From a virus: a stretch of DNA of 64,000 nt. The notes beneath the pieces were generated by a model, which saw only the letters and a list, made by a program, of their open reading frames with translations, did no database searches and was not told the origin of the DNA. The DNA lies in the IMG/VR virus record IMGVR_UViG_3300045988_182772, one strand, 5' to 3'. How positions within the stretch are numbered: position 1 is the first letter of the stretch; each line of letters begins with the position of its first letter. Position numbers and translations under genes: made by a program. Positions 16,120 to 49,251 of this stretch are shown one piece after another.

Positions 16120-17445
16120 ATGACTACCCATATCTGGAAAAGGATGCTTTCCTCACTGCTGTGCGGTATTCTCTCGGTATCCTGCATGACAGCTACCGTA
16201 TTTGCCATTGACGGCAAGAGCGTAAGCGGCGCATTTGGTGAGCATTGGGATGAAGTCCAGGAATCGTATGAAACCTCCTTCGGCTGGGACTATAATAAGC
16301 ATCTTATGAAGGACTGGACGGATGACGACACCGGAAACGAATATGAGCGGCAAGCAGGGTATCAGGAAGAGTGGTATCGGAATAACATTCTGACCACAAA
16401 GCAATACCTTGGTGTTTCGACTGGAGAAGGCGGAAATGGCAGCAATATCGTTGAAGTCGCGCTCAGCCAACTCGGCTTGGACGATTCCATTGAAATCCCG
16501 CCGAACTCGAATTTTGTCAAATACAATGACTGGTACTATGGCAGCCACCGTTCCGGACAGTGGTGCGCGGCGTTTGTCTCTTGGTGCGCAAATGAATGTG
16601 ACCTTTTGGAAAATACAATTCCAAAGGATGCCAGTTGCTCAAGTATGTTTAAGAAACTCACGGGAAGATACGGCTACGCATACTATCCCGTTCGAAGCAC
16701 AACACCGTTCGGTGGTTCTTATACACCGGTTCCGGGCGACCTTATGTTTTTTTCAGAGACTGGTAATCTAAGACTGGCTAAGCCTTTTAATCACATCGGC
16801 ATCATTGTTGAGGTGGATGAAACCGGATGGTACACGGTCGAGGGCAACACAACTGGCGGCGGGCAAATCCCAGGCGGCGGTGTTGCAAAAAACCACTATA
16901 CAGCATCGACCACATACAAAGCTGCGAAAAACGGCTATATCGTTCATGTAGAATATCCTGAAACAGCATTTTCGGAAATCCAGGGTGGCACCAACAAGGA
17001 GAAGGTGTTCTCTTTCCTGACAGAGGAGCTTGGCCTGAACAATGCTGCCGCCTGCGGGGTTATGGCAAATGTCCAAAATGAATCTGGTTTTAACCCGGCA
17101 AGACATGAGGATAAAAACGCATACGGAGATGGACTGGGCGAAGGTTATGGTTTATGCCAGTGGTCCTATAGCAGAAAGACAGCACTACTGAGTTTTTTGC
17201 AGGAAAATGGTTTTGCTGAAGACTCTATAGAAGGACAGCTCTGGTTTTTCAAGACCGAAATCGAATCTTCGGAGCGTACAGCGTGGAACGCCATCAAGGA
17301 CCTGCCTAATACATCAGATGGCGCGTATGAGGCCGGACTCCTGTGGTGCCTGAAATTTGAGCGTCCGCGTGATGGCGTCGGAGATTCTGTGGAGCGAGGC
17401 AATCTCGCGCAAAATACATACTGGCCCGCTTACGGCGGACGGTGA
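16120..17445 (+). CDS. bifunctional cell-wall hydrolase of Gram-positive T4SS (CHAP/NlpC-P60 peptidase + lysozyme-like domain), CwlT/TcpG-like
   Basis: Signal peptide. CHAP motifs GQWCAAFVSWCA...HIGIIVEV. C-terminal lysozyme-like NNAAACGVMANVQNESGFNP...GYGLCQW. Confidence 0.75.
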   Translation: MTTHIWKRMLSSLLCGILSVSCMTATVFAIDGKSVSGAFGEHWDEVQESYETSFGWDYNKHLMKDWTDDDTGNEYERQAGYQEEWYRNNILTTKQYLGVSTGEGGNGSNIVEVALSQLGLDDSIEIPPNSNFVKYNDWYYGSHRSGQWCAAFVSWCANECDLLENTIPKDASCSSMFKKLTGRYGYAYYPVRSTTPFGGSYTPVPGDLMFFSETGNLRLAKPFNHIGIIVEVDETGWYTVEGNTTGGGQIPGGGVAKNHYTASTTYKAAKNGYIVHVEYPETAFSEIQGGTNKEKVFSFLTEELGLNNAAACGVMANVQNESGFNPARHEDKNAYGDGLGEGYGLCQWSYSRKTALLSFLQENGFAEDSIEGQLWFFKTEIESSERTAWNAIKDLPNTSDGAYEAGLLWCLKFERPRDGVGDSVERGNLAQNTYWPAYGGR

Positions 17446-22000: not shown

Positions 22001-22759
22001 TTGATTTCGGGGGTATTGGCAATTTTCTTTTGGAATGTCATTTCAGTTCCTATCACCACAAAAATATCCCTGGTCATATTCCTTTCCGCACCACTTGGCC
22101 TGCTTGGCTTGTTTGGAGTGAACGGCGACCCGCTGTCCACCTTTATCAAGATTTTCTTTTCATGGCGAAGAAAACGGGGGCTGATGCTGTTCAACAACGA
22201 AGCACGAGCGTTGAAGGAAGCCCCCATTAAGCTCATGATGTCGGAAGATGGCATGGGCGACAAACTCAGGGATTTTCTGGATACCAGAAAGGAAAAGAAG
22301 GCCGCCGAACGGGCGAGTCAGGAGATGGTTGAAGGCAAAACATTCGAGTTTGCACCTGACAGTTCACTTGAGGGCAACTACATTGATGAAGATGACGATG
22401 GCGATGGAACGCCGAGCGGCAGCGCCGGCAATCGCCATAAAACAAAGCACAACCAATCCTTCGTTGAAGTGGAAGTCCTGGAAGAGGATGACGATACCTC
22501 GTTGGAACTGGACGGATTTACGGAGGATATCGACAGCAGCACCGTTGAGGAATCTGGTCTGCCGTTGCCGGATTTGGGCGGGGCCGACGATGTGGAATTG
22601 AGCAACGATGACACTAACGAGATGCCTGACGCCGAGGAATCTGACGATAATCCCCCCGCGTGTGAAACGCAACTGGAGCCTGCGGCAGAGGATAATTCTG
22701 ACGCCGAAGGCGACGCGGATGGGGAAGATGAAGAACTTGACGAGGAGGATTTGTTTTAA
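22001..22759 (+). CDS. VirB3-like small membrane protein with acidic C-terminal tail (precedes VirB4)
   Basis: Two TM segments at the N-terminus. Long D/E-rich tail. Stop overlaps the VirB4 start (TAATG). Confidence 0.4.
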   Translation: MISGVLAIFFWNVISVPITTKISLVIFLSAPLGLLGLFGVNGDPLSTFIKIFFSWRRKRGLMLFNNEARALKEAPIKLMMSEDGMGDKLRDFLDTRKEKKAAERASQEMVEGKTFEFAPDSSLEGNYIDEDDDGDGTPSGSAGNRHKTKHNQSFVEVEVLEEDDDTSLELDGFTEDIDSSTVEESGLPLPDLGGADDVELSNDDTNEMPDAEESDDNPPACETQLEPAAEDNSDAEGDADGEDEELDEEDLF

Positions 22760-25251
22760 TGTCCAGAAAACTGAAGCAAGTAATAAGCTGCCAATCTTTC
22801 TCGCCCATAAGTGATGTCCGTGACGGCATCATCGTCACGAAAGACGGGAAATTTGTGAAGTTGATGGAGTTCTCTCCTATCAACTACGGCTTACGGTCAA
22901 ACGAGGATAAGAACATGATTACGGCACAATATGCGGCCGCAATCCGCTCGTTTCCAAGCGTTGTCCAAATCAAAGTTCTGTCCAATCGCGCAAATGTCGA
23001 ACACTATATTTCCGGCATGGTGGAAAGCGTGCGCCATGAAAAGAATGAAGGAACCCGTGAACTGATGCGGGAGCAAATCGACATGATGTCAGAATTTGGC
23101 GCATCGCAAGGCGTATCCCGTCGCTTCTTTCTCGCATTCCAGTATGAGGAAGAAGAGGGATTCGCACATCGTTCACCATCATGGAATGAAATCAGAAGCA
23201 CCATTACGAGACAGGAGGACGCCATCAGAAGCAACCTTCGGGCCTGCGGCAACATTATGATTTCAAGGCCTCACGATGACGTCTATGTGCTTTCCACGCT
23301 TTACGATATCATGTCCAGAGCACAGAGCGCGAACCACCCGTTTGACGAGAGAATGGCGGATGTTGTTGCCCGATATACGGCGGCAAACATCGACTTCACG
23401 CGAGATAGCGCGGCGCATCTTCCTGTCAATGATGTGCTTGCTCCGTACTGCATTGATACGGAGTCAAGTCCCCGATATATCATCGTGGATGGCATCTACT
23501 ATATGTGCTGCTATCTTCCGAGCAATGCCTATCCTGTGCGCGTTCTTGGCGGCTGGATGCAGCTGCTGGCAGGGCTGGGAGAGGGGATTGATGTGGATGT
23601 TTGGCTTCAGAAGATTTCACCGGAGAAAATTCAAACGGCACTGCATCATGGCCTGCGGTTCAATGCAATGCGCTTCCGCAACACAGAAACCACCAGTAGT
23701 GACTACGATGATGTGAAGGCTGCGGTGGACGCAGGATACTATCTGAAAAGCTCTCTCGCGGCCGGCGACGAATTTGCCTATATGTCTACAATGCTCACTA
23801 TTACAGGCGAAAGCGAGCGAGAAATTGACTACAAATTCAAGGAAATCCGGCGCATTTTCATTGAGAGAGAATTGACTCTCAAGCCTTGTACTTTCCAGCA
23901 AGCAGAAGCGTTTCGCTCCACCATTCCCGTATGTGAGTATGACAAAAACCTATTCCGTAAGAGCCGCAGAAATATTCTGTGTTCTGATTTTGCGTCCACC
24001 TATATGTTCACATCTTCGGAGCTGTGCGATAAGGACGGCGTGATGCTGGGCGTGGATGATGTGTTCAAATCACCGGTTCTGGTCAACTTCTTCGACCGCC
24101 AGCAATACATCAATGCCAACATCAATATTGTCGGCTCCTCTGGCTCCGGTAAGACCTTCACCACGCAGGTTCTGGCTTTGAGAATGCGGGAGAAGGGGGT
24201 TCAAACCTTCATTATCGCGCCGCTGAAAGGCAAGGAGTTCCTGCCGCTTTGTGAGAAGGTCGGGGGCAGTTTCATTGAAATCAAACCTGGCTCCGGACAG
24301 AATATCAATATCATGGAGATACGCAAGAAGGAAGAGGGCAACGTCTACGATGACGATGGTGCGTTGGTCACTTCCGGCTCGATTTTGGCACAGAAAATCC
24401 AGCAGCTTCTCATTTTCTTTAAGCTGATTATCCCGGACATGACGCCAGAAGAGGTGCAGTATGTGGATGACGCGCTGCTGAAAACTTACGGCAATTTCGG
24501 AATTACCCATAAGAACAAGAGCCTGTTGGACCCCAACGACAAGAAGAAATACCGTAAAATGCCTATCCTTTCGGATGTATATTCTGAGCTGGAAAAGATG
24601 GGCGCACCAGCAAATCGTTTGTGCCGTTTGCTGACGCGATACACCACAGGTTCTGCATCTTCGTTCAACGCGCAAACCAATGTGAACCTTAACAACAAGT
24701 TCGTAGTGCTGGATGTTTCCGATGCGCAGAAAGACTTTCTTCCTGTGGCTATGTTCCTTGCATTGGATTATGTTTGGGATAAATGCAAAGAAAATCGGAA
24801 CGTCAACAAGTGTGTTTTCATTGACGAGACTTGGCGCTTGGTCTGCTCCGATGCACCTATCGAAGCCGCCAATTTCGTGGTCGAAATCTTCCGTACTATC
24901 CGAGGCTTCGGTGGAAGCGCCGTCGCTGCCACGCAGAATATCGCAGACTTCTTCTCTGCGGGAATTGGCACCGCCATCATCGGAAACGCCAAAATCAAAA
25001 TGATTTTGCGCAGCGAAAAAGAGGAAGCAAACGCGATTGCGGATGCGATTGGTCTGACCGACGAGGAACTCAAGCGTGTAAAAACCATGGACCGTGGAAC
25101 CTGTCTCCTGACCGCAAATGAGAACCACATTTTCATCAATGTTAAGGCGACGGATACGGAAGAATACCTGATAACGACTGACCCCAAAGCAAGAGCCGCT
25201 GCGAAGCGCCGAATTGAGCAGAAGCGTACTTGCGCTGCCTTCAGGCGCTGA
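22759..25251 (+). CDS. VirB4-family T4SS ATPase (TcpF/CagE/TrbE-like)
   Basis: Walker A GSSGSGKT. Walker B VFIDETWRL. 830 aa. Confidence 0.85.
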   Translation: MSRKLKQVISCQSFSPISDVRDGIIVTKDGKFVKLMEFSPINYGLRSNEDKNMITAQYAAAIRSFPSVVQIKVLSNRANVEHYISGMVESVRHEKNEGTRELMREQIDMMSEFGASQGVSRRFFLAFQYEEEEGFAHRSPSWNEIRSTITRQEDAIRSNLRACGNIMISRPHDDVYVLSTLYDIMSRAQSANHPFDERMADVVARYTAANIDFTRDSAAHLPVNDVLAPYCIDTESSPRYIIVDGIYYMCCYLPSNAYPVRVLGGWMQLLAGLGEGIDVDVWLQKISPEKIQTALHHGLRFNAMRFRNTETTSSDYDDVKAAVDAGYYLKSSLAAGDEFAYMSTMLTITGESEREIDYKFKEIRRIFIERELTLKPCTFQQAEAFRSTIPVCEYDKNLFRKSRRNILCSDFASTYMFTSSELCDKDGVMLGVDDVFKSPVLVNFFDRQQYINANINIVGSSGSGKTFTTQVLALRMREKGVQTFIIAPLKGKEFLPLCEKVGGSFIEIKPGSGQNINIMEIRKKEEGNVYDDDGALVTSGSILAQKIQQLLIFFKLIIPDMTPEEVQYVDDALLKTYGNFGITHKNKSLLDPNDKKKYRKMPILSDVYSELEKMGAPANRLCRLLTRYTTGSASSFNAQTNVNLNNKFVVLDVSDAQKDFLPVAMFLALDYVWDKCKENRNVNKCVFIDETWRLVCSDAPIEAANFVVEIFRTIRGFGGSAVAATQNIADFFSAGIGTAIIGNAKIKMILRSEKEEANAIADAIGLTDEELKRVKTMDRGTCLLTANENHIFINVKATDTEEYLITTDPKARAAAKRRIEQKRTCAAFRR

Positions 25252-32838: not shown

Positions 32839-32905
32839 CCGAATGGCGGCGTATAGCCCCTGGATTTATCCATGGGGATATAAGCCGCCCGTCCTCCTTT
32901 TTTCG

Positions 32906-32935
32906 TTGATTATTTCTTGGATTTGTGGTATAATT
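32906..32935 (+). promoter_or_regulatory. promoter cassette P3 (TTGATT-N17-TGTGGTATAAT)
   Basis: ttgattatttcttggatttgtggtataat. Confidence 0.5.
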
Positions 32936-32957
32936 TTGCTGGAAACGAGGTGAGAAA

Positions 32958-34070
32958 ATGGAATATTCGTACAAATTCAGAATTTATCCGAACACTGAGC
33001 AGCAAACGCTCATCCAAAAAACTTTCGGCTGCTCTCGGTTCGTCTACAACCATTTTCTCGCCCAGCGAATTGCGGAGTACAATGCCACGGGCAAAGCCCC
33101 CACACGGTTCCAGCAGGACAAAATGCTAACCTCGTTAAAGAAAGAACTGTTGTGGCTCAAAGAAGTGGACTCCACTGCCTTGCAATCTTCTCTACAAACG
33201 CTTGATTCTGCGTATCAGAACTTCTTCCGGCGGGTAAAGAACGGTGAGAAACCTGGCTATCCCAAGTTTAAGAGCAAGAAGAACCATCGGAAGTCCTACA
33301 AAAGCAAGTGTGTCGGGACGAACATCAAAGTAGTTGGGAAGTGTGTCCAACTCCCGAAACTCGGCCTTGTGAAGTGCCGTGTTTCAAAAGAAGTCAGGGG
33401 CCGTATCTTGTCCGCCACCATCAGTCAGAACCCGTCCGGCAAATACTTTGCGGCCCTGTGCTGTGCCGATGTGGACATTGAACCTCTGCCCTCTACCGGG
33501 GCGGTGGTCGGCCTCGACATGGGCTTGAAGTCATTCGCAATCACCTCCGATGGGGTTGAGTACAAGAACCACCGCTACCTCCGCAAGAGCCAGAAGAAAC
33601 TTGCCCGTCTCCAGCGGCAGCTCTCCCGAAAATCAAAGGGGAGCAATCGCAGAGAGAAAGCACGGGTCAAAGTAGCGAGGCTCCACGAGAAGGTAACGAA
33701 CCAGCGGAACGATACCCTGCACAAGCTGTCCACCTCGCTTGTTCGGGACTATGACCTGATCTCCGTGGAGGACTTAGCATCCAAGAACATGGTGCGAAAC
33801 CACAAGTTGGCCCGGTCAATCTCGGACGCTTCCTGGGGCGAGTTCCGGCGGCAGTTGGAATACAAGGCGGCGTGGTACGGCAAGCGGGTGGTCACAGTTG
33901 ACCGCTTCTATCCTTCCAGCCAGCTATGCTCCTGCTGCGGCGCACAGTGGCCCGGCACAAAGGATTTGGACGTCCGGGAGTGGACTTGCCCGGTATGCGG
34001 CACGGTGCATGACCGTGACCACAACGCCGCTGTAAACATTCTTAACGAAGGTCTACGTCTCTTGGCGTGA
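32958..34070 (+). CDS. tnpB: TnpB (IS605 OrfB family RNA-guided endonuclease)
   Basis: RuvC-like motifs. C-terminal zinc finger [10 protein letters not shown]...[18 protein letters not shown]. 370 aa. Confidence 0.85.
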
Positions 34071-34190
34071 CCGATACATGGTAGGGCGGGACACGCCCGA
34101 ACCCATACGCTCAGGGAGACTATGTAAGACCTCGCAGGTGCAGGCAGCAGTCGCTGAACTGAGAATCCCCTGCCTTTAGGCATGGGGAGT
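34071..34190 (+). ncRNA. candidate TnpB right-end guide RNA (reRNA/omegaRNA) region
   Basis: GC-rich structured sequence directly 3' of tnpB (ggtagggcgggacacgcccgaaccc...). Confidence 0.35.
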
Positions 34191-34569
34191 GTCAATGAGG
34201 AGGAACTCTATGTTGAATGTAAAAACGCTGAAGGTCGTAGCTTTGCTTAACGAACTTGCGGAGAAGGAAAAGAACGGTATTAGGGAATTCAAAAACGCCG
34301 ACGAAGACAACAGAGAGACTTTCCTTTTCTACGATGCCGCGTGCTGTACGCGGCGGAAGGATGGAGCGTTGCTCTACAAGGTGCCGCGCGATATGTGCAT
34401 CATCGACGAGAAAGCGAATAAGCATCACGATATCATCTCCTACTATGGAGACGACGACTACGATGTGGTGGTCGTAGATAATGGCGAAGGAGAGCTTTTT
34501 TTGGAGGTGCATTTCGCCGCCGAGGAAGAGTTCGTTGAATTCAGCAATGGGGAGTGGTACTTCGCGTGA
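34189..34569 (+). CDS. small acidic hypothetical protein
   Basis: ORF. Start may be at the internal Met (34210). Confidence 0.3.
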   Translation: MSMRRNSMLNVKTLKVVALLNELAEKEKNGIREFKNADEDNRETFLFYDAACCTRRKDGALLYKVPRDMCIIDEKANKHHDIISYYGDDDYDVVVVDNGEGELFLEVHFAAEEEFVEFSNGEWYFA

Positions 34570-39116: not shown

Positions 39117-40985
39117 TTGGATTACCACGCTTTTTGTCAAAAATTCAATATTCGCGGCCTCAACGAACAGCAGGAAGCCGCTGTCCGGCGGGTAAATGGA
39201 GCAACGCTGCTCCTTGCTGTGCCGGGAAGCGGAAAAACGACTGTCATCGTAGCGAGGACTGGCTATCTCATGTATGTCGCAGGCGTACAGCCGGAGAATA
39301 TCCTGACCATCACATACACCCGTGCGGCGGCGAAGGAGATGAAAGAGCGCTTCGCAAAGAAGTTTGCGCCGGAACGGATGCCGGCATTCTCCACCATCAA
39401 CAGCTTCTGCCTGTCCGTCATCAATACCTGCGTGAAAGAAAAGTATATCCATGTGCCAAAGCTGGTGCCGAACAATGAGAGCATCATCCGCGCCATCGCA
39501 GCGAAGATGCTCCCGGAGTACCCCAGCGACTCGCAGGTACGGTCACTGGCGCAGAAGGTGTGCAAAGTAAAGAACAAGCTCATGACCTTGCAGGAAATCG
39601 AGGCCATTGAGGAAAACAGCCTTGAGTTCCCCGTGTTTTATCAGGCGTACAAGCTGTATATGAGCGAACACGACCTGATGGATTTTGATGACCAACTGCT
39701 CATGGCTAATGATTTGCTGGATGAATACCCGGACATCTTACAGCGGGCGCATGAGAAGTTCCGCTATGTGAGCGTGGACGAGGCGCAGGACACCTCGTAT
39801 GTCCAGCACCTTATTGTCCGGAAGCTGGTTGGCCGGAACGGCAATATCTTCATGGTCGGAGACGAAGACCAGAGCATCTACGGCTTCCGGGGCGCGTATC
39901 CTGCTGCATTGCTGGACTTCCAGAGCAACTATAACGAACCCTGTATCCTGCGTATGGAGACCAATTACCGCAGCGACAGGAACATCGTCTTAGCGGCCAA
40001 TCAGTTCATTAAACGGAATACGAGGCGACTCGACAAGAATATGCGTGCCCAGTCTCAAAAGGACGGAGCCATCGTCGTGACCTGCATCGACCGCATGGAA
40101 CAGCAGGCAGAGCTTCTGCTGGAGCGCATCCGGAATCAGAAGCCGGATGAATCTCTGGCAATTCTGTATCGGAATAACGACTCTGCTATCCCACTTATCA
40201 ATCTGCTCCAGATGAACGGCATTCAGGTTCAAACCAGAGATGCGACGAAGACCTTCATGACAAACTACGTCATTCGGGACCTGCTCGACTTTATGCTCCT
40301 GGCCCTGAACCCTGCTGACACCACCGCTTTTGGGCATCTGTACTACAAAATGGGACTTTACATGAAGGGTGTCACCGCCAAGCGCATTATCGAGGCGGTT
40401 GAAGAAGGGGAGTGCCGGAACGTATTCAGCGCCGCGATGAAATTCGCGGGCGGCAAGGGAGACACATGGAAAATAGGATGCCTGCCGAGGGACTTTTCAG
40501 ACATTGCGAAGAAGAAGCCCGTCGAGGCTATCGACTACATTCTGTTCGTGCTCGACTATTGGAACAACTGGCTGACGAAGAAAATTGACGCCGGTGCTTC
40601 CGAGCAGTTTATCCGCCTGCGTATCAGCATTTTGAAGATGGTAGCGGAGAAGTATTCGACCATTCCGGACTTTCTTGCCGCACTCAAAAACATCACGGAA
40701 TATAAGGGCTGCGAGGATTCCAATGTGACCGTTACCACCATCCATTCCAGTAAAGGTCTGGAGTTCGATAAGGTCATCTTAATCGACATGGTATCTGGCA
40801 TCATTCCCGGTGACAGCGACGACCGCGACGCGGAGGATGACGAAGAGGATGCACGAGCATTCTACGTCGGAGCGACGCGGGCGCGGCACGAACTGGAAAT
40901 CATCACCTGCCGAAAGATGTACGAAGAAAAACTGGAAGTATCTGAATTTGTGCCGCGCCTGCTGGCGGCGGGGAAAGGAGACTGA
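39117..40985 (+). CDS. UvrD/PcrA/Rep-family SF1 DNA helicase
   Basis: Walker A AVPGSGKTTV. DEAQD box (VDEAQDTS). Motif III GDEDQSIYGFRGA. Motif VI VGATRARHEL. Confidence 0.85.
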   Translation: MDYHAFCQKFNIRGLNEQQEAAVRRVNGATLLLAVPGSGKTTVIVARTGYLMYVAGVQPENILTITYTRAAAKEMKERFAKKFAPERMPAFSTINSFCLSVINTCVKEKYIHVPKLVPNNESIIRAIAAKMLPEYPSDSQVRSLAQKVCKVKNKLMTLQEIEAIEENSLEFPVFYQAYKLYMSEHDLMDFDDQLLMANDLLDEYPDILQRAHEKFRYVSVDEAQDTSYVQHLIVRKLVGRNGNIFMVGDEDQSIYGFRGAYPAALLDFQSNYNEPCILRMETNYRSDRNIVLAANQFIKRNTRRLDKNMRAQSQKDGAIVVTCIDRMEQQAELLLERIRNQKPDESLAILYRNNDSAIPLINLLQMNGIQVQTRDATKTFMTNYVIRDLLDFMLLALNPADTTAFGHLYYKMGLYMKGVTAKRIIEAVEEGECRNVFSAAMKFAGGKGDTWKIGCLPRDFSDIAKKKPVEAIDYILFVLDYWNNWLTKKIDAGASEQFIRLRISILKMVAEKYSTIPDFLAALKNITEYKGCEDSNVTVTTIHSSKGLEFDKVILIDMVSGIIPGDSDDRDAEDDEEDARAFYVGATRARHELEIITCRKMYEEKLEVSEFVPRLLAAGKGD

Positions 40986-41987: not shown

Positions 41988-42329
41988 ACACGCGAGGAAG
42001 CGTACAAAACAGCGTGCTGGTCTCGGCAAAAGAGCAGCCGTGCGCAATGCACAGAAAGCCTTTGACTTTGGCGTGAAGCACTCGGAGACCAGAGGCCACC
42101 TGAATGGATACCTTACATCCATCCGCTTCAAAAACAAAACCATCAACAATATTCGAGTATATCACCGGCACGTCTATCTGTTTGCCGGGGATGTCCTCGT
42201 AACGGTGCTCAATCTGCCAAACAGCTTGTGGTCGCAGGCAGAGTCCTGTGAGAAGAGAAAAAACATGAGTCTCGAATGTCCTGTCAATCAGGACGCTGCT
42301 CTTTAGCTTTACCCCGCCGAATGGCGGGC

Positions 42330-42640
42330 GGGTGCGCCGGAAACTCCGGCTCAGCCTCCTGTCATTTGGTGTGGCTTATGACCCGCAAGGGTAGTAAGCC
42401 TCGTCAATAAGCCTCAGCCGCAAGGCTACGATATGCCGGAATACATAGGCACCGGCGGATACTCCACAAGTCCGCCGCTCTGCGGGTGCGTATTAAACAT
42501 CTCTGAGGGGAAGGAGAAGTGTGCGTACCATCAAACCCAGTGTATCTTTGGCGATGTGGACCACAGTAACGCCGTGCAAGCGGTAAGTGCTGATTTACCA
42601 AATTTTTGGTTTTTCTTGAAGCCTGTATCGAAGACTACCA
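42330..42640 (+). ncRNA. candidate tracrRNA-like / omegaRNA-scaffold transcript containing an anti-repeat to the downstream array. Boundaries approximate.
   Basis: cctgtcatttggtg at ~42358-42371 is the exact reverse complement of the repeat core caccaaatgacagg. GC-rich structured region. Weak terminator-like hairpin plus tttttggttttt near 42600-42640. Confidence 0.3.
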
Positions 42641-42651
42641 ACCTACATTGA

Positions 42652-42880
42652 GTTGATACCCCCGCCAAGTAGCTATACCCTATGGCGAATACAGCAATCA
42701 ACTCTCGATTGTTGACGTACCCCACCAAATGACAGGCAGCTATACCAATTTTACCGTCTTATTTCCTTGTCGAATAGTTGACGTACCCCACCGAATGACA
42801 GGCAGCTATACCGCAGCCCCCCCGCAAACGGAGCATCACGCACAGTTGACGTCCCCCACCGAATGACAGGAAACTGCACC
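42652..42880 (+). CRISPR. CRISPR-like mini-array: degenerate repeat (42652-42679), 36-nt repeats at 42711-42746, 42777-42812, 42845-42880, with unique spacers of 31, 30 and 32 nt
   Basis: Repeat 1 GTTGACGTACCCCACCAAATGACAGGCAGCTATACC. Repeat 2 identical except A17G. Repeat 3 GTTGACGTCCCCCACCGAATGACAGGAAACTGCACC. Upstream copy GTTGATACCCCCGCCAAG--TAGCTATACC. Spacers aattttaccgtcttatttccttgtcgaata and gcagcccccccgcaaacggagcatcacgcaca. Confidence 0.5.
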
Positions 42881-42904: not shown

Positions 42905-44299
42905 ATGCCAGTATGTGTTTTAAGTGCAAACGGTGAACGGCTGATGCCAACCGAAAATTACGGCAAAGTGCGCCATCTGCTGAAGGAGGGCCGCGCTGTG
43001 ATTGCAAAGCGAAACCCGTTCACCATCCAGCTGACCTACGAGACCAGTACCTATACTCAGTCCATCGAAATGTGCGTCGGCACCGGATATGAGCATATCG
43101 GCGTCAGCATTAAGACAAAGGCAAAAGAGGTCGTATCGCAGCAATATGATTTGCTCACGAACGAGCGCTCCCGCCATGACGACTGCCGAGTGCACCGCCG
43201 GACGCGCAGAAACCACCTGCGGTATCGGGCTGCACGGTTCAATAACCGTGTATCCATCAGAAAGCCCGGTTGGATTGCTCCGTCCCTGGATAATAAGGTG
43301 GAGCGGCACCTGGATATTATCTCCCGCTATCTGTCTGTCATGCCTGTCACGGATGTCTTTATCAAGGCCGCAACATACGATACACAGCTCCTTGCGGCGC
43401 TGGAGGCAGGGGAGCCTGTCCCGCAGGGCAAGGACTATCAGCATGGGCCGCAGTACGGCCACGATACGCTGCGGGAAGCGGTCTTTGAACGAGACCACTA
43501 TACCTGTGTGTATTGCAAGAGAGGCCTGAAAGACGGCGCTATCCTTCATGTCCATCATGCCTACTACTGGAAGGGTCTGCATGGGAACAGCATGAGGGAG
43601 CTTGCGACCTGCTGCGAGAAGTGCAACACACCTGCCAATCACAAGGAGGGCGGGAAGCTGTGGGGCTTCGATAAGCCTCTGCGGAAATATACCGGCGAAG
43701 CGTTTATGAATAGCGTGCGCTGGATTCTCTATCAGCGTGCGATGGCCCGCTTCCAGGGTGTTGCGGAAGTACACATGACCTATGGCGTCATCTCCAAGCG
43801 CGTCCGCACCAACCTCGGCCTCCCGTATTCCTGCGCTACGGATGCCTACTGCATGGGCGAGCTGCGTCCGGAAGCCAGATGCGAAACAGAGGTCTTCCAG
43901 AAATACAGGCGAAACAACAGAGTCCTATCCAAATTCTATGACGCCAAATATTACGACACACGGGAAAAGGGAGTTATCCGTTCTGGCAACGAGCTGTCCT
44001 CCGGCAGGACGAACCGCAATCATAACCTTGACGGCGAAAATCTGCGCCGGTTCCGTGGCTGTAAGAAGTCAAAGGGCCGAACCTCGACCAGAAAGCAGAG
44101 ATATGCCATGCAGCCGGGAGATATCGTGGTCTACGGCAATCGCAAATACGTTTCCAAGGGCTGCTCCAGCTATGGCAGGGCATTAAGCCTACTCACGGAT
44201 GGAAAGCCGCTTATGGTCAGCATGAAGAAAATCCAGCTTGTTCGTCATAAGGGCGGCTGGGTGCGGCTTCCCCATGCAGCAGCCGAGGCAAAAAAATAA
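42905..44299 (+). CDS. iscB: IscB-like RNA-guided nuclease candidate (PLMP-like N-terminus, RRxRR arginine-rich bridge helix, HNH), 465 aa. The RuvC-I catalytic Asp is not evident.
   Basis: MPVCVLSANGERLMPTENYGKVRHLLKEGRAVIAKRNPFTIQL (PLMP-like). HRRTRRNHLRYRAARF (RRxRR). HNH CVYCKR...HVHHAYYW...CCEKCNTPANH. RBS aaaggaaaaaataag then ATG. Track ORF 42863 trimmed because the upstream codons lie inside repeat 3. Confidence 0.6.
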   Translation: MPVCVLSANGERLMPTENYGKVRHLLKEGRAVIAKRNPFTIQLTYETSTYTQSIEMCVGTGYEHIGVSIKTKAKEVVSQQYDLLTNERSRHDDCRVHRRTRRNHLRYRAARFNNRVSIRKPGWIAPSLDNKVERHLDIISRYLSVMPVTDVFIKAATYDTQLLAALEAGEPVPQGKDYQHGPQYGHDTLREAVFERDHYTCVYCKRGLKDGAILHVHHAYYWKGLHGNSMRELATCCEKCNTPANHKEGGKLWGFDKPLRKYTGEAFMNSVRWILYQRAMARFQGVAEVHMTYGVISKRVRTNLGLPYSCATDAYCMGELRPEARCETEVFQKYRRNNRVLSKFYDAKYYDTREKGVIRSGNELSSGRTNRNHNLDGENLRRFRGCKKSKGRTSTRKQRYAMQPGDIVVYGNRKYVSKGCSSYGRALSLLTDGKPLMVSMKKIQLVRHKGGWVRLPHAAAEAKK

Positions 44300-44346
44300 C
44301 CACCTGCGGATAAACCGTGGGCGGTGGAAATTGACAAAGCGGGGCC

Positions 44347-44682: not shown

Positions 44683-45180
44683 ATGAAAAACATCATGCTC
44701 AGCATCCGACCTGAGTGGCTCCAGAAAATCCTGTCGGGCCAGAAGACCGTGGAGCTGCGCCTGTCCAGACCGAACCTTACGCCGCCCTTCATGGTATTTC
44801 TCTACTGCTCCTGCAAGGGTACAAAGAAGCCCGGTGAAATTCTTGAAATCCATAGCGGCGGCAAAATCTACAAGGCAAACGGTCTTGTGGTAGGGGAGTT
44901 TACCTGTACCGAAATTGACCGTGTGGTGCGCGTGGGCTATATGGGCAGCAACGCGCCGCTTCAATACTGTGTCAACGCACAACCTGGAAACTACACCCCA
45001 GCGGGGAAACTGTATGAGGACGCCTGCCTCACCGTGAAGCAAGCAGAGGACTACCTCTGTGGCCGCGTGGGATACGGATGGCACATCTCTGATGTGCAGA
45101 CCTATGACCGGCCCAAGAGCCTCGACTGCTTCGCACTTGCGAGAGCACCGCAGAGTTGGCAGTACGTCCACGATTTTTAA
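44683..45180 (+). CDS. ASCH-domain protein
   Basis: MKNIMLSIRPEWLQKILSGQKTVELR matches the ASCH N-terminal signature. RBS aaaggag. Confidence 0.5.
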   Translation: MKNIMLSIRPEWLQKILSGQKTVELRLSRPNLTPPFMVFLYCSCKGTKKPGEILEIHSGGKIYKANGLVVGEFTCTEIDRVVRVGYMGSNAPLQYCVNAQPGNYTPAGKLYEDACLTVKQAEDYLCGRVGYGWHISDVQTYDRPKSLDCFALARAPQSWQYVHDF

Positions 45181-45195
45181 GGAGGGATTCAAAAA

Positions 45196-45411
45196 ATGGC
45201 AAATTACAGAGTTTGTTTTCGGCTGCCCACATTTGTGGTACAGCTGAGCTTTGAGGCGGCAGAGAGGGATATCTCATACGAGGAAATTGCTGCATCCATC
45301 AACAAAGAGAAGGTCGCGGAACTTCTGTGTCTTGACGCACTGGGCTACAGTGCGGAAGACATAGAAATCATCACCCCGGAAGAGTATGACGAGGAGGTTG
45401 GAGCGGAATGA
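45196..45411 (+). CDS. small acidic hypothetical protein (71 aa)
   Basis: RBS aaggaggg. Confidence 0.35.
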   Translation: MANYRVCFRLPTFVVQLSFEAAERDISYEEIAASINKEKVAELLCLDALGYSAEDIEIITPEEYDEEVGAE

Positions 45412-46670
45412 ACACTGAGGAGCGTTTCCTGCTTCGCTCGTCAGTAGAATGGCGAAAGAATTTGATGCAGGATTGCTTGTGTATGCCGTGTGCTGAGTTC
45501 TCTGACTCTTTCGACGCAGCTGTAGACGCTGCCATCGCCACATTCCCTGAGTTGGAGCGGGAAGCTATCTTAAAACGCTACCGCGACGGTCTTACACCAA
45601 CACAATGCGCAAACGCACTGAAAATTGACATCGGCAAGTTCTACTCTTGCTTCGACCTCGCCATAAGGAGGCTGCGTCACCCCAAATATGCGGGGGGTAT
45701 CCTGAAAGAAATGCGCCGGTTTGCAGGCAGCCCTCTCGCCTCTGCTTTGAAGGAGGCCATTGAGAATGGCAACTGGAAAAAAATCGAGGAGTTGTGCGAT
45801 TCTGTTCCGTTTCAGTGCCTCAATTTCTCGACTCGCACCAAGAACTGCCTTATGTTCAGTGGTGCCCAAAGTATCGGCGATGTTGTTCGACTGATAGAGA
45901 GCGGCAAACTGAAGAATCTGCGCCAATGCGGGCAGGGGACCCTTCAGAATATTATCGACGTACTGGAAAAGGCTCTGCCGTTCCATTTCATCCTTGGAAA
46001 GCCAGCTCAATTCTGTCCGGAAACGAGTGATGCCTTCACCCGGAAGGAACACACTCGCCAGCTCTCTGCCATGCTGGAGCGATACATCGACCCGCGCAAC
46101 GACCCACGCATCTACTGGGCGAGAGAGGTCACATTCGACTACTCTACGAACCACAAAATCCGCGTGGACTATATGCGCTTTCAGCCGCTCAACAATTCGA
46201 CCTCCGGCATTGAGAAGGGGGACTTCTACGCCTACGAGGTCAAGTCCTCTGTGGAGGATTTCAAATCTCCTAACGGGCACAACTTCATCGCGGACTACAA
46301 CTACTACGTTATGCCCGCAGACGTCTTCGAAGCGGTGAAGGATACTGTGCCATACGGCGTCGGTGTGCTTTGCCCGGACGGCGGGCATCTGCGATGCGTG
46401 AGGAAAGCCGTGAGGAAGGACCGAACCAGACCGGTCAGCGAGATGCTGCTCATGCTGTGGCGCAGCTCACGAAGAGATTTTCCCGCCACTGACGTGGCCC
46501 CGGTAATGCACACCCGCTGGGCGCATCTTGGCGGGGACGAGTGGTGTTGCCCTGCGTGCGGCTTTGTCATTACCACTGAGGGCAGTTGGGACAAGCCTAC
46601 CAAAAAATACTGCGAGGATTGCGGGGCCAAGATGGACGGAGGTGCTGACCATGAAGACAGACAAGATTAA
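45408..46670 (+). CDS. regulatory protein with sigma-70 region-4-type HTH at the N-terminus and a C-terminal zinc ribbon
   Basis: ELEREAILKRYRDGLTPTQCANALKIDIGKFYSCFDLAIRRLRH (region 4-like). C-terminal CCPACG...CEDCG. Confidence 0.4.
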   Translation: MNTEERFLLRSSVEWRKNLMQDCLCMPCAEFSDSFDAAVDAAIATFPELEREAILKRYRDGLTPTQCANALKIDIGKFYSCFDLAIRRLRHPKYAGGILKEMRRFAGSPLASALKEAIENGNWKKIEELCDSVPFQCLNFSTRTKNCLMFSGAQSIGDVVRLIESGKLKNLRQCGQGTLQNIIDVLEKALPFHFILGKPAQFCPETSDAFTRKEHTRQLSAMLERYIDPRNDPRIYWAREVTFDYSTNHKIRVDYMRFQPLNNSTSGIEKGDFYAYEVKSSVEDFKSPNGHNFIADYNYYVMPADVFEAVKDTVPYGVGVLCPDGGHLRCVRKAVRKDRTRPVSEMLLMLWRSSRRDFPATDVAPVMHTRWAHLGGDEWCCPACGFVITTEGSWDKPTKKYCEDCGAKMDGGADHEDRQD

Positions 46671-47037
46671 CCAGCCTGAGTTCGCCCCGGAGGAGTGGCG
46701 GAAGGCGGCCATTATGTACGATACATCCTTTGCCTGGTGTAAAAATCAAATTTCAGCCTGGGGTAAGAATCAAATTTCATTTACACCGGGCTTTAACGAG
46801 ATGTTCGATGAAGCGCTGGACACACTTCCTGAGCGAAACCGCGATATCGTCCAAAAGTATTTTCGTGACAGAATGACGTTTTCGCAAATCGCCGACCTGC
46901 ACGGCACCAGCAGAAGCATAGTTCGCCATCTGTGTATCTGGACGGTATGGAGGGTCATGAATTTGATTCTGCTGCGAGAAGGAAGCAACCAAAATGCCGC
47001 GCCACAAACAGGCGGAGGAACTGAAGGTGGGTATTGA
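46651..47037 (+). CDS. small sigma-70 region-4-like HTH protein
   Basis: LPERNRDIVQKYFRDRMTFSQIADLHGTSRSIVRHL. In-frame ATG with RBS overlapping the upstream gene end. Confidence 0.4.
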   Translation: MKTDKINQPEFAPEEWRKAAIMYDTSFAWCKNQISAWGKNQISFTPGFNEMFDEALDTLPERNRDIVQKYFRDRMTFSQIADLHGTSRSIVRHLCIWTVWRVMNLILLREGSNQNAAPQTGGGTEGGY

Positions 47038-47521
47038 CATCAATAGCCTGCCGCTTTCCGCACAGATTCAGGTGCGTGCAAAGCTCGACGAGCAGAAGCG
47101 CGAACAGAACCAGCAGCGAACAAAAAAACAGTCGGAAGCACAGAAAAGGCAAAAACAGCCGAAAGAAGCGGACTCTGCTGAGCCATCCAAATATCGCAAT
47201 GTAAAGGTTTTCCGCGTGGTGGATGGAGAAACCGTGAAATTCCCCAGCAAGCGGGAGGCACGCCGCTTCGATGAACTGTATTTGCAGTACAAGGGCGGTG
47301 CAATCCAGGACCTGCGGCTCCAGCAGGACTTCACGCTGGTCGAGGGCTATACACGGCCAAATGGCAAGCGGGTTCGCCCAATGGTCTATAAGGCAGATTT
47401 CGTATACCTTCGCAACGGTAAACGCATCGTGGAAGACGCGAAGGGAAAACGAACCGAAAAGTATCTCATGAAACGCAAACTCATGTTGGAAAAGTACGGA
47501 ATCGAAATTTCGGAGGTGTAA
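46994..47521 (+). CDS. DUF1064-family protein (phage-type; basic N-terminus)
   Basis: SKREARRFDELYLQYKGGAIQDLRLQQDFTLVEGYTRPNGKRVRPMVYKADFVYL...VEDAKG fits the DUF1064 pattern. Confidence 0.45.
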   Translation: MPRHKQAEELKVGIDINSLPLSAQIQVRAKLDEQKREQNQQRTKKQSEAQKRQKQPKEADSAEPSKYRNVKVFRVVDGETVKFPSKREARRFDELYLQYKGGAIQDLRLQQDFTLVEGYTRPNGKRVRPMVYKADFVYLRNGKRIVEDAKGKRTEKYLMKRKLMLEKYGIEISEV

Positions 47522-47526
47522 TATCA

Positions 47527-48030
47527 ATGTTTGAAAACGGTAAGTTCCCAACGATTGAAGAGCTTTTGGAACGGGGAGAACACCTCATTCAGAAGGCAGT
47601 TGACGGAAAAAGATTAAGCGGCGAGGAAACGCATTTTCTCAAATTGCAAAATATATGGCTTGCGCAAAGGAGGGATGAACAGGAAAAAAACTGCGCGCGT
47701 CCTCTTGTGGAGCAGCTCAAGAAAACAACCCCCTTTGTGCAGGATGTATTCCGCAGCACCGAATATTCCGAGTTCGCCCTCTGGTGCATTGAGATTCTCA
47801 CTACCGCCAGCCGGCACAACGATGACGGCTCAAACGACATCTGCGGTTGTTGGATTACGGCAGACAACAGCACGACCTACGAGGAGATGTGTCGCCGTCT
47901 GGAAGGAGTGAAGACGAAAGCCGATATTCTGGCTCTCTCCACCACGCCAAGTACCGTTGAGGCAATCAGTACGGCCACACCGCGCTGGAGGGCGGAGGTG
48001 GAGCAACTCCGCGCACAACAGCAAAAATAG
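47527..48030 (+). CDS. hypothetical protein (167 aa)
   Basis: ORF with terminator at 48046-48076. Confidence 0.4.
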   Translation: MFENGKFPTIEELLERGEHLIQKAVDGKRLSGEETHFLKLQNIWLAQRRDEQEKNCARPLVEQLKKTTPFVQDVFRSTEYSEFALWCIEILTTASRHNDDGSNDICGCWITADNSTTYEEMCRRLEGVKTKADILALSTTPSTVEAISTATPRWRAEVEQLRAQQQK

Positions 48031-48045
48031 TCTCTCCCATCCTGA

Positions 48046-48076
48046 AAGGCCGTCAGCACATCGCTGGCGGCCTTTT
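48046..48076 (+). terminator. rho-independent terminator
   Basis: ggccgtcagcacatcgctggcggcc followed by ttttg. Confidence 0.55.
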
Positions 48077-48077
48077 G

Positions 48078-48110
48078 ATTGACAAGTAAGCTATTGTGTG
48101 GTATAATTGC
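48078..48110 (+). promoter_or_regulatory. promoter cassette P6
   Basis: ttgacaagtaagctattgtgtggtataattgc. Confidence 0.55.
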
Positions 48111-48129
48111 TTCATTCAGTGAAGGGGGG

Positions 48130-49251
48130 GTGGTTGACATCACGAATACCAGTAATTTAGCCGCTGACCGTGCGCTTGCCTATGAAGCCATTGAAAGGCA
48201 GCCTGAAACAGAAGAAATCGCAGCTTCGAATGAACAGGAGACCGAAGCGAAGCAGCCGGGAAATATCGGCGACCATGTGGCGATGTATCTCAGCCAAATT
48301 GGCAGCATCCCCATTATGCCGCAGGTGGAAGCGAATCGCTGCATTGAAAAAGTGCAGAAGGGGAATGCCGCTGCCGAACAGCTCGAAACGCTGCGGGTGA
48401 TTGCCGAGGAGAGCGGGTATGCAGTTGACCCCGAAATCAAGAAAGACCTGATGAAGGCCATAGAAGCAGGAAGACGGGCGAAAGATAAGGTTGTTGAGGG
48501 CAATCTTCGGCTTGTTGTGTCCATCGCAAAGAAATATATAAACTCAGCCGATTCTATGGTGTTCATGGACCTCATCCAGGAGGGCAACATTGGCCTCATG
48601 CGTTCCATCGACTCTTTTGACATTTCGAGGAATGTGAAGTTTTCCACCTACGCAACCTTCTGGATAAGGCAAAACATCACAAGAGCGCTTGCCACGACGG
48701 ACCCAGCCATTCGCAAGCCCATCTATGTTGCGGAGGGCAGGCGGAGCGTCAATAATGCAAAAGAACAAATGCAACAAAAAGGCTTACCTTGTGATGACCC
48801 TTTAGAAATCGCAAAATACATGGAGGGGGATGCGTGGGATTCCCTTTCAAAAAGGGAGCAGCAGAAAAAACTGCGCATCATCCAACACTCGCTCCAGTAC
48901 CGGAAGCCGGACTCGTTGGATGCGCCCGTCAATTCGGACGCCGCAAGCGATTCCAACACACCGCTTTCGGAATTCATCCCAAGCCATAACGAGTGGGATA
49001 ACCCGGAAATTTCAACGTCAGGGAAGGCACTATGGGAAACGATGGACAAAATCCTGCACGATATGCCCGCACGAGACGCCTGTGTGCTTCGCTTACGATT
49101 CGGATTGGAGGATGGTTGTGCTTATACCCTCAAAGAAATCGGGGACGAAATGGACTTAACGCGAGAGCGTGTCCGTCAGGTTACAGATAAAACACTCGAT
49201 AAGCTACGCAACGGAAAGGCAGGGAAGATGCTTCAGGACTTTCTTGAATAA
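48130..49251 (+). CDS. sigma-70-family RNA polymerase sigma factor (regions 1.2, 2, 3, 4). Start uncertain: GTG 48130, GTG 48277 or ATG 48283.
   Basis: MYLSQIGSIPIM (region 1.2). LRLVVSIAKKY...FSTYATFWIRQNITRAL (region 2). AYTLKEIGDEMDLTRERVRQV (region 4). The track start 48079 would include the promoter, so it was trimmed. Confidence 0.7.
   Translation: MVDITNTSNLAADRALAYEAIERQPETEEIAASNEQETEAKQPGNIGDHVAMYLSQIGSIPIMPQVEANRCIEKVQKGNAAAEQLETLRVIAEESGYAVDPEIKKDLMKAIEAGRRAKDKVVEGNLRLVVSIAKKYINSADSMVFMDLIQEGNIGLMRSIDSFDISRNVKFSTYATFWIRQNITRALATTDPAIRKPIYVAEGRRSVNNAKEQMQQKGLPCDDPLEIAKYMEGDAWDSLSKREQQKKLRIIQHSLQYRKPDSLDAPVNSDAASDSNTPLSEFIPSHNEWDNPEISTSGKALWETMDKILHDMPARDACVLRLRFGLEDGCAYTLKEIGDEMDLTRERVRQVTDKTLDKLRNGKAGKMLQDFLE

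Follow-up and report, generated by a model that had tools for sequence, protein, structure and literature searches.

An IscB with an inactivated RuvC site beside a small CRISPR-like array in a mobile element of gut Oscillospiraceae

We analysed a stretch of DNA of 64,000 nucleotides (nt), hereafter the window, which is filed as IMG/VR virus record IMGVR_UViG_3300045988_182772. Its plus strand carries at 42905..44299 a gene of the RNA-guided IscB family, iscB, which is preceded by an omegaRNA scaffold and by a short array of direct repeats, and whose product has, by alignment, lost most of its RuvC catalytic residues. Related contigs and genome loci are designated here by L-numbers, and homologous proteins by P-numbers.

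The iscB gene, the scaffold and the repeat array

The features of the locus are listed below in the order in which they occur.

42313..42615, plus strand: omegaRNA scaffold, putatively tracrRNA-like; the block conserved between the two scaffold copies of related elements
42315..42328, plus strand: degenerate repeat-like strand CGCCGAAUGGCGGG, from the RNAfold minimum free energy (MFE) structure
42353..42374, plus strand: anti-repeat AGCCUCCUGUCAUUUGGUGUGG, exact reverse complement of CACCAAATGACAGG, which is present in every repeat
42375..42398, plus strand: hairpin 2 of the 5' module (CUUA..GCAA..UAAG), from cmscan
42403..42408, plus strand: 3' strand of helix P1, GUCAAU, whose partner GUUGAC forms the first 6 nt of each repeat
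42594..42620, plus strand: weak hairpin and U-run ACCAAAUUUUUGGUUUUUC, read from the letters; coincides with the end of the conserved block
42652..42679, plus strand: degenerate repeat U0 (GTTGATACCCCCGCC..AAGTAGCTATACC) at the leader end, repeat-like with an internal deletion
42680..42710, plus strand: spacer 1, 31 nt, unique to this window
42711..42746, plus strand: repeat U1, 36 nt, repeat family D1
42747..42776, plus strand: spacer 2, 30 nt, likewise unique to this window, with no IMG/VR match
42777..42812, plus strand: repeat U2, 36 nt, repeat family D1
42813..42844, plus strand: spacer 3, 32 nt, on the trailer side; the 'common' spacer, shared by about 20 related arrays
42845..42880, plus strand: terminal repeat U3, with a degenerate 3' tail (GAAACTGCACC) and an intact scaffold-pairing part
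42890-95, plus strand: putative ribosome-binding site AAAGGA, 5' of iscB
42905..44299, plus strand: iscB with inactivated RuvC site, 464 amino acids (aa), N-terminus MPVCVLSANGERLMPT
44300..44327, plus strand: imperfect hairpin CCACC...GGTGG just 3' of the stop codon, picked out by eye from the sequence

The product of iscB matches the Pfam family RRXRR, the IscB N-terminal family, over residues 3-181 (1.7e-39), and its PLMP motif reads ERLMPT. In phmmer comparisons, solved IscB chains align with it from end to end at E-values of 5.6e-30 to 2e-28, the OgeuIscB chain 7xht_A standing at 2e-28, and the IsrB and Cas9d chains give far weaker matches than these. Cas9 and Cas9d chains are weak by sequence (E 1e-7 to 1e-4) and occupy rank 11 and lower in Foldseek. 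An AlphaFold2 (AF2) model computed from a 26-sequence alignment, with a mean pLDDT of 75.6, has the IscB structure 8csz_D as its best Foldseek match (E 7e-24), and the ranking places IscB structures first, with IsrB and type II-D Cas9 after them. The domains follow the order PLMP, RuvC-I, arginine-rich bridge helix, RuvC-II, HNH, RuvC-III and a C-terminal domain that interacts with the target-adjacent motif (TAM), with no recognition (REC) lobe. The protein is not a Cas9, as it has only 464 aa, carries a PLMP domain and lacks the REC insertion. The Pfam HNH match (15.8 bits) falls below the cut-off of 21.4, and the same occurs in most of the listed relatives. A longer reading frame could start from the ATG at 42863, but it would overlap the last repeat and is not used in the homologues. 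The RRXRR match, the IscB chains, the AF2/Foldseek results and the HEARO match on the same strand identify the open reading frame (ORF) at 42905-44299 as a true IscB locus.

The HEARO match, the Rfam family of these RNAs, lies inside the scaffold at 42403-42566 on the plus strand and reaches 87.0 bits (E 2.6e-17), the gathering score being 83. The limits of the scaffold are given by the proximal and distal copies of L001 and L002, which are 95-99% identical and whose similarity begins at 42313 and ends near 42615, and its RNAfold z-score is -4.66. The Infernal alignment shows no 5' strand of P1 in cis ('vvvvv' in cmscan, the helix being collapsed in the HEARO match), and the guide is also absent in cis. 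Hairpin 2 is the equivalent of the second inner hairpin of canonical omegaRNAs (compared in L016-18, L013 and L115). Within the scaffold itself, the degenerate strand at 42315..42328 can form 14 bp with the anti-repeat, including 4 G-U pairs, and its putative role would be that of a competitor for this strand. The weak hairpin at 42594..42620 is a possible 3' end of the scaffold RNA; a terminator scan did not call it, the G-C pairs being too few.

Most relatives carry a second scaffold copy of ~418 bp (HEARO 94-100 bits) with two degenerate repeats. It is located between the positions equivalent to 41365 and 41366, just upstream of a gene for a 200-aa membrane protein, and it is present in L001 (8221-8638), L002, L006, L007, L009, L012 and L100-L109 and absent from the window. 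Assemblies of many related contigs (L003, L005, L008, L010, L011, L093) tend to end within the scaffold or the array, 70-400 nt upstream of iscB, as would fit short-read assemblers confused by the scaffold duplication and by the repeats.

Between the scaffold and the iscB start codon, the array (42652-42880) comprises three 36-nt direct repeats and a degenerate fourth one, with start-to-start spacings of 66 and 68, where 0 such repeats are expected by chance. The repeat is conserved in more than 30 contigs with an iscB of 95-99% identity, where an array holds between 2 and 8 or more copies of it. Near-identical elements differ in their spacers, of which there are about 15 distinct ones with lengths of 26-33 nt; the array varies, and the adjacent scaffold is 95-99% conserved. 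Unique spacers occupy the scaffold side, and shared ones, such as GCAGCCCCCCCGCAAACGGAGCATCACGCACA, adjoin the terminal repeat with its degenerate 3' tail. The second array of L101 has gained two canonical spacer-repeat units. In its anatomy and in its behaviour within the population this is a small CRISPR-like array. Spacer 3 occurs in IMG/VR only in the arrays themselves. The possibility that the repeats serve as promoters for the sigma factors of the element was rejected, as the motif occurs nowhere else in the 64 kb.

We also observed that spacers GCAGCCCCCCCGCAAACGGAGCATCACGCACA and GTCAAGCGCCGCAAACGCTTCCCCACGGTA have a common core, CCGCAAACG, and a similar layout (window 42813-42844; L007/L012/L100/L105/L113). 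They may derive from homologous sites in two diverged targets.

Catalytic residues, selection and descent

The catalytic residues of OgeuIscB are D61, E193, H340 and D343 in RuvC and H247 in HNH (PMC9640706). We mapped them by a phmmer alignment to 7xht_A and by a MAFFT alignment with the 120 best homologues. D61 corresponds to G59 (GGC, 43079-81), E193 to K154 (within VFIK, 43364-66) and H340 to C310 (43832-34), and only D343 is retained, as D313 (43841-43). The homologues have D, E, H and D at these columns in 113, 112, 114 and 119 of the 120 cases respectively, and the G/K/C combination is shared only by the near-identical cluster P0001-P0006. By contrast, H246/H247 are kept as H217/H218 (43553-58), a pair that is invariant in the alignment, together with the HNH zinc ligands C201/C204 and C237/C240. 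The last HNH metal ligand is N241 (43625-27), where 112 of the 120 homologues have His. By alignment, then, the protein has lost three of its four RuvC catalytic residues and kept the HNH histidine pair. The fold and the motif positions of RuvC are present, yet the tetrad reads G59/K154/C310/D313 in place of D/E/H/D.

An initial annotation of this DNA, made from the letters alone, had proposed that the RuvC-I Asp was missing and had read Thr or Gly in its place; the loss was borne out, with Gly and not Thr at the site. It had also found no obvious RuvC-II and RuvC-III signatures, naming VTDVFIK and a C-terminal NHNLDGEN in this connection. K154 falls within VFIK, and RuvC-III is in fact YSCATDAY (308-315). 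The intact HNH motif that it described agrees with the histidine and cysteine pairs, to which the change at N241 has to be added.

The substitutions are not scattered. Out of 138 positions that are conserved in at least 90% of 113 canonical relatives, 126 are retained and 12 changed, and eight of the 12 are in the RuvC site (D59G, E154K, G156A, F158Y, T297S, K308Y, H310C and N312T). Two of 39 conserved positions changed in the linker and HNH segment, H241N being the one change of an HNH ligand, and none of 17 in the C-terminal, TAM-interaction part. None of the changes at the 138 positions brings in a new acidic residue.

The same protein, at 95-99% identity, is encoded in L001-L003, in seven IMG/VR contigs, in L012, which is an Oscillospiraceae isolate genome, and in the human-gut contigs L099-L114. 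Seventeen copies are intact and full-length. All copies carry G59/K154/C310/D313, H217/H218 and N241, and the CxxC...CxxC zinc ligands are invariant across them. The ratio of non-synonymous to synonymous rates (dN/dS, Nei-Gojobori) between sublineages is 0.08-0.25, with binomial p from 6e-4 to 1e-8; in one sublineage comparison there are 18 synonymous and 11 non-synonymous differences. Since the intact copies keep these residues, dN/dS is low and the changes concentrate at RuvC, we conclude that the IscB is kept by selection in most lineages with its RuvC site inactivated. L004, with a different upstream context and a 5'-truncated gene, was considered as a second insertion site and rejected, being a chimeric contig.

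The next-closest homologues are 50-58% identical and all canonical, the nearest of them standing at 56-58%. In genomes, these canonical relatives are ordinary multi-copy insertion sequence (IS) elements of Clostridia, with three identical copies in a Faecalibacterium metagenome-assembled genome (MAG) and at least 10 in a Lachnospiraceae MAG. Their layout consists of an omegaRNA region of 320-445 nt, iscB, and a right end of ~60 nt carrying a hairpin. The left boundary is exactly the first base of helix P1 (GUCAAU or CUCACU), and the DNA just 5' of it is unrelated flank, i.e. the guide. In a neighbour-joining tree the RuvC-dead lineage groups as sister to P0007 and P0015, both canonical, and its branch has twice the median length. 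P0007 has D/E/H/D, no array and a normal omegaRNA in cis (102 bits), and P0015 likewise has the D/E/H/D tetrad and an ordinary cis omegaRNA. Because the lineage nests within canonical IscBs beside these two proteins, the loss of RuvC is, judging by the tree, recent and derived, from an IS-borne IscB. The same nesting rules out the suggestion that the protein could be a distinct branch between HNH homing endonucleases and IscB.

At the window locus we do not find an IS200/IS605-type element with defined ends, in multiple copies or with tnpA: the iscB site is identical in all related contigs, the window has one copy, and no tnpA is adjacent to iscB. The hairpin at 44300..44327 is a possible remnant of the IS right end.

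Sporadic RuvC substitutions are also seen in about 4-5% of ordinary IS copies, for example E->Q in L042, E->K and H->Y in L054, and D->N in L071, each with one canonical omegaRNA and no array. A mutated RuvC residue is therefore insufficient on its own to indicate domestication. L042 also has a group II intron downstream.

A different case is L116, a single 2.6-kb contig whose protein P0046, an unrelated member of the subfamily, has RuvC D->S and E->G, with H and D kept. Upstream there are two complete tandem omegaRNAs (303-570 and 642-908), ~97% identical and with different 5' guide segments. P0046 is far from the window lineage in the tree, which makes its RuvC change an independent one, again with several guides. 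This hints that the loss of RuvC and the multiplication of guides perhaps go together more generally.

A proposed split guide RNA, the probable activity of the effector and the host element

Each repeat starts with GUUGAC, the complement of the scaffold strand GUCAAU at 42403-42408, and the two can form a 6-bp helix. In canonical P1 helices (L016-18, L115, L013), GUCAAU is at the 5' end and its partner is AUUGAC or GUUGAU. In the window the two strands have changed places, equivalent to compensatory changes in three pairs, and only the repeats provide the 5' strand. That three base pairs changed on both sides supports the GUUGAC/GUCAAU pairing. The 17 nt that follow in the repeat (CCCCACCAAAUGACAGG) are complementary to CCUGUCAUUUGGUGUGG of the scaffold (42358-42374), with one mismatch. 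RNAcofold predicts 14-17 intermolecular bp between repeat and anti-repeat, even with the cis competitor 42315-42328 present, and association energies of -11.6 to -22.8 kcal/mol. The variants of the repeat keep or improve the pairing, as A->G gives a G-U pair and C12->A mends a C-U mismatch. The predicted three-way junction is formed by P1, the repeat/anti-repeat helix and hairpin 2 (42375-42398). Its topology is that of the 5' module of canonical omegaRNAs, except that the first inner hairpin has an opened loop, and the spacer takes the position of the canonical guide. Since the repeat supplies 5' strands that the scaffold lacks in cis, we predict that the omegaRNA is split into a scaffold resembling a trans-activating CRISPR RNA (tracrRNA) and spacer-repeat units resembling CRISPR RNAs (crRNAs). 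Both RNAs are presumably expressed and processed.

Two other explanations of these upstream sequences were considered. The segment 42295-42312, just 5' of the conserved block, could be the guide; it has no other match in the window and varies between copies only as the 3' end of the upstream ORF, and it was dropped. The array model is preferred because canonical left ends start at P1, a strand that is found here only in the repeats. The repeats could also be DNA targets of the internal anti-repeat of the scaffold, in a form of autoregulation. We set this aside, given that the pairing of repeat and scaffold reproduces the canonical P1/hairpin-1 topology and that the spacers vary.

RuvC cuts the non-target strand and HNH the target strand. 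IscB/HEARO effectors with engineered RuvC-site mutations are used as nickases in base editors (PMC9755519; PMC12660989). Because these strand roles are known and the engineered mutants act in this manner, RNA-guided nicking of the target strand is the most likely activity of the protein. The best joint explanation of the locus, to which we give a probability of about 0.6, is an IS-derived IscB domesticated in a mobile element, with a split guide and a RuvC-dead nickase. According to this proposal, a large mobile element of gut Oscillospiraceae would have captured an IS200/IS605-type IscB element at one site, and this would then have become domesticated. The RuvC site would have been inactivated and held so by selection, with PLMP, bridge helix, HNH and TAM-interacting domain under constraint. 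The scaffold (42313-42615), devoid of guide and of the P1 5' strand, would act as a tracrRNA, and the repeats of the array (42652-42880) would provide the missing 5' strands, each spacer-repeat unit pairing with the scaffold through GUUGAC/GUCAAU and the 17-bp repeat/anti-repeat helix. The ribonucleoprotein (RNP) would recognise complementary DNA beside a TAM, and HNH would nick the target strand alone, the non-target strand staying uncut because RuvC is dead. Its role would most likely lie in conflict with other mobile elements, or in nick-dependent interference or silencing.

Several observations weigh against this proposal. H241N, at a metal ligand of HNH, arose together with the RuvC changes, and for this reason the activity of HNH is uncertain. 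The cofold MFE structure does not include the P1 helix in trans. For 16 spacers, searches of the window, of all related loci compared, of the INPHARED phages and of the PLSDB plasmids found no protospacer, and exact 20-23-mers of 6 spacers found nothing in IMG/VR beyond the arrays. No cas1 or cas2 appeared among the matches listed (best 25 families) for the 69 window ORFs examined with PADLOC and Pfam, or within 10 kb of iscB in L001 and L002 by Pfam matches. The scaffold and the array showed no sigma-70-like promoter upstream. Finally, some copies are damaged, by a 167-bp deletion in L002, a frameshifting 2-bp insertion in L003 and a stop in L008, so that iscB would be dispensable in some lineages unless these are assembly errors.

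The genes of the host element that bear on these questions, and others close to iscB, are the following.

16120-17445: hydrolase with CHAP and lysozyme domains, conjugation-type module
17454-19730: type IV secretion system (T4SS) coupling protein, conjugation-type module
22759-25251: VirB4-like/TraG-P-loop ATPase, conjugation-type module
32958-34070, plus strand: TnpB (OrfB_IS605, Cas12f1-like TNB, HTH_OrfB_IS605; PADLOC Cas12f 6e-77)
39117-40985: UvrD-like superfamily 1 (SF1) helicase, upstream of iscB (Pfam 3.1e-60)
44683-45180: ASCH-domain gene
45408-46670: protein like the C-terminal domain of the RNA polymerase alpha subunit (alpha-CTD)
46528-47037: sigma-70 region-4 protein
46994-47521: DUF1064 gene
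48079-49251: sigma-70 r2/r4 protein, also PADLOC MzaA (1.7e-37)

IMG/VR files the related contigs as viral. The 64-kb window gave no match to a capsid, a portal or a convincing terminase, and a 'terminase' match at 22759-25251 was rejected, being the VirB4-like P-loop. A primase, ERF, UDG and several sigma-like factors are also encoded. Because the element carries conjugation genes, the phage label is unsafe, and we regard the host as a large mobile element of gut Oscillospiraceae.

An alternative that ranks next after the nickase, because H241N accompanies the RuvC changes, is an RNA-guided protein that binds DNA or silences transcription without any cutting, an IscB counterpart of TldR, Cas12c/m or type IV systems. 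HNH too would then be non-functional, either through H241N or because its activation is coupled to a working RuvC lobe. We consider this alternative unlikely. RuvC is dead, the last HNH ligand changed in the same lineage, and TldR is a precedent for OMEGA nucleases turned into repressors. Moreover, nuclease-poor type IV systems on plasmids silence rival plasmids, and this element has conjugation genes. However, a lineage with no need for cutting would be expected to lose the HNH histidine pair too, and H217/H218 and the zinc ligands are invariant in all copies, with only 2 of 39 conserved positions changed in the linker and HNH against 8 around RuvC. Asn at the position of N241 is, besides, the ligand that Cas9 itself has at the equivalent site (N863). 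The initial annotation had offered an HNH-only nickase or a non-cutting binder, next to the distinct branch discarded above; the first part of that interpretation is favoured by the loss of three of four RuvC residues, the retained HNH pair, PLMP, bridge helix and C-terminal domain, the selection and the upstream HEARO, and the second falls. The variable array, the split omegaRNA and the fixation at one site of a mobile element had escaped that annotation.

It is improbable, in our opinion, that the target suffers a double-strand break or degradation with the help of a partner, either the UvrD-like SF1 helicase of the element, which would process the HNH nick, or a second RNP on the opposite strand. 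UvrD-type helicases load at nicks, and this one is syntenic with iscB in L001, L002 and L100. Nevertheless, it belongs to an apparent replication/recombination module (primase, UDG, ERF, DUF1064), three unrelated ORFs separate it from iscB, and co-variation or co-loss of helicase and iscB was not seen, which makes this explanation pure inference.

That the gene is a decaying IS remnant, with random damage in RuvC and junk left-end duplications as repeats, is very improbable: ordinary IS copies do show the sporadic substitutions of L042, L054 and L071, three related copies are disrupted, and neither tnpA nor a sign of mobility was found, but dN/dS stays at 0.08-0.25 over several sublineages, 126 of 138 conserved positions are kept with the changes clustered at one active site, 17 ORFs are intact, the repeats have a constant length and about 15 unrelated spacers of narrow length range show ordered gain and loss, and the scaffold is 95-99% conserved beside the variable array.

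The element has other features apart from these. TnpB is intact and lies in a ~1.36-kb segment (32840-34195) that is replaced by ~265 bp in L001 and L002, which identifies the segment as an IS insertion specific to the window. A PADLOC 'Csx1' match was rejected, since it is this same protein. L098/L010 (6685-8068) carry a second, canonical IscB after the equivalent of 49247, 35% identical to the dead one, with D/E/H/D and HH..H intact and a textbook omegaRNA (HEARO 124 bits); it is an ordinary IS insertion, absent from the window. A cluster of transcription-related genes is located just downstream of iscB (45408-49251). Inside the large ORF 12027-14672, the segment 14222-14392 contains a tandem duplication of 81 nt, whose two copies are 70% identical and lie 90 nt apart. 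A fluoride-riboswitch-like match at 45355-45438 on the minus strand (15.8 bits, E 0.83; gathering score 34) is most likely due to chance.

Comparison with known systems

With canonical IS200/IS605 IscBs (OgeuIscB, 7xht/8csz), the window protein shares domain order, size and an upstream HEARO/omegaRNA on the same strand. It differs in having three of four RuvC residues replaced and in occupying one fixed site of a mobile element, as well as in an omegaRNA with neither guide nor P1 5' strand in cis and in the array placed between scaffold and gene. Compared with CRISPR type II systems, there are constant repeats with unique spacers and a predicted tracrRNA-like RNA with an anti-repeat, and no cas1 or cas2 was seen among the matches listed for the locus.

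CRISPR-associated IscBs were reportedly described by Altae-Tran et al. in 2021. One of them, DelIscB, comes from an aquatic metagenome, has a repeat/anti-repeat RNA and an intact RuvC, acts as a double-strand nuclease, and has been seen as an intermediate between omegaRNA and crRNA:tracrRNA (PMC12660989). Compared by description, both have an effector of IscB size and an upstream non-coding RNA with repeats, spacers and an anti-repeat. Unlike DelIscB, the effector of the window is RuvC-dead and is carried by a mobile element from the gut; its scaffold precedes the array, and its spacers vary among strains. The nearest relatives of the window IscB have no array, which suggests that its association with one is of separate origin from that of DelIscB.

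The origin of the dual crRNA:tracrRNA and of the array of Cas9 from omegaRNA is an open question that rests on a handful of CRISPR-associated IscBs. In the present locus, the predicted split of the omegaRNA can be followed at base-pair resolution: the loop of hairpin 1 would be opened, the 5' strands would have passed to the repeat, and the spacer would take the place of the guide. Because canonical relatives of 56-58% identity can be compared and natural spacer turnover is visible among strains, the IscB-to-CRISPR transition becomes directly testable. We would tentatively see here a recently born CRISPR-like system independent of Cas9 and still evolving, which gains spacers with no cas1/cas2 of its own and acts as a natural nickase, although we stop short of considering it probable. 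If this were true, the locus would be a living replica of the transition from IscB to Cas9 with a different enzymatic outcome.

In engineered nickases (nOgeuIscB, the enDelIscB nickase, the HEARO MG35-1 nickase and Cas9 D10A) RuvC is likewise off and HNH on. These are point mutants made in the laboratory, whereas the window IscB is natural, multiply substituted and maintained by selection. In the limited set of papers searched, we found no description of a natural RuvC-dead IscB, and a natural, RuvC-dead, CRISPR-associated IscB on a mobile element is a new variation on CRISPR-associated IscB. If HNH is active, this would be the first natural effector of the IscB family selectively kept with RuvC off and HNH on, and a native target-strand nickase of 464 aa, the engineered equivalents of which serve compact base editors.

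The arrays of huge phages and the type IV systems of plasmids combine short arrays, no cas1/cas2 nearby and a nuclease-poor effector, with a presumed role in competition between elements. The window locus resembles these compact CRISPR systems in its short array, in that no adaptation genes were seen nearby, and in its reduced effector. To our knowledge, their effectors (Cas12j, Csf complexes) are unrelated to it and none is IscB-derived. TldR derives from TnpB, has a single nuclease site that is fully dead and uses one fixed guide against a host promoter. Together with Cas12c/m/k, it shares with the window protein the co-option of an OMEGA nuclease by a mobile element, the inactivation of RuvC under selection and the retention of a guide RNA. 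In contrast to TldR, the window protein is derived from IscB, keeps its HNH site and is accompanied by a variable multi-spacer array, and the protospacer searches mentioned above found no spacer target at a promoter. In this sense, the locus adds the IscB branch to a pattern known from TldR and type IV systems, namely the re-use by mobile elements of RNA-guided nucleases whose cutting is reduced.

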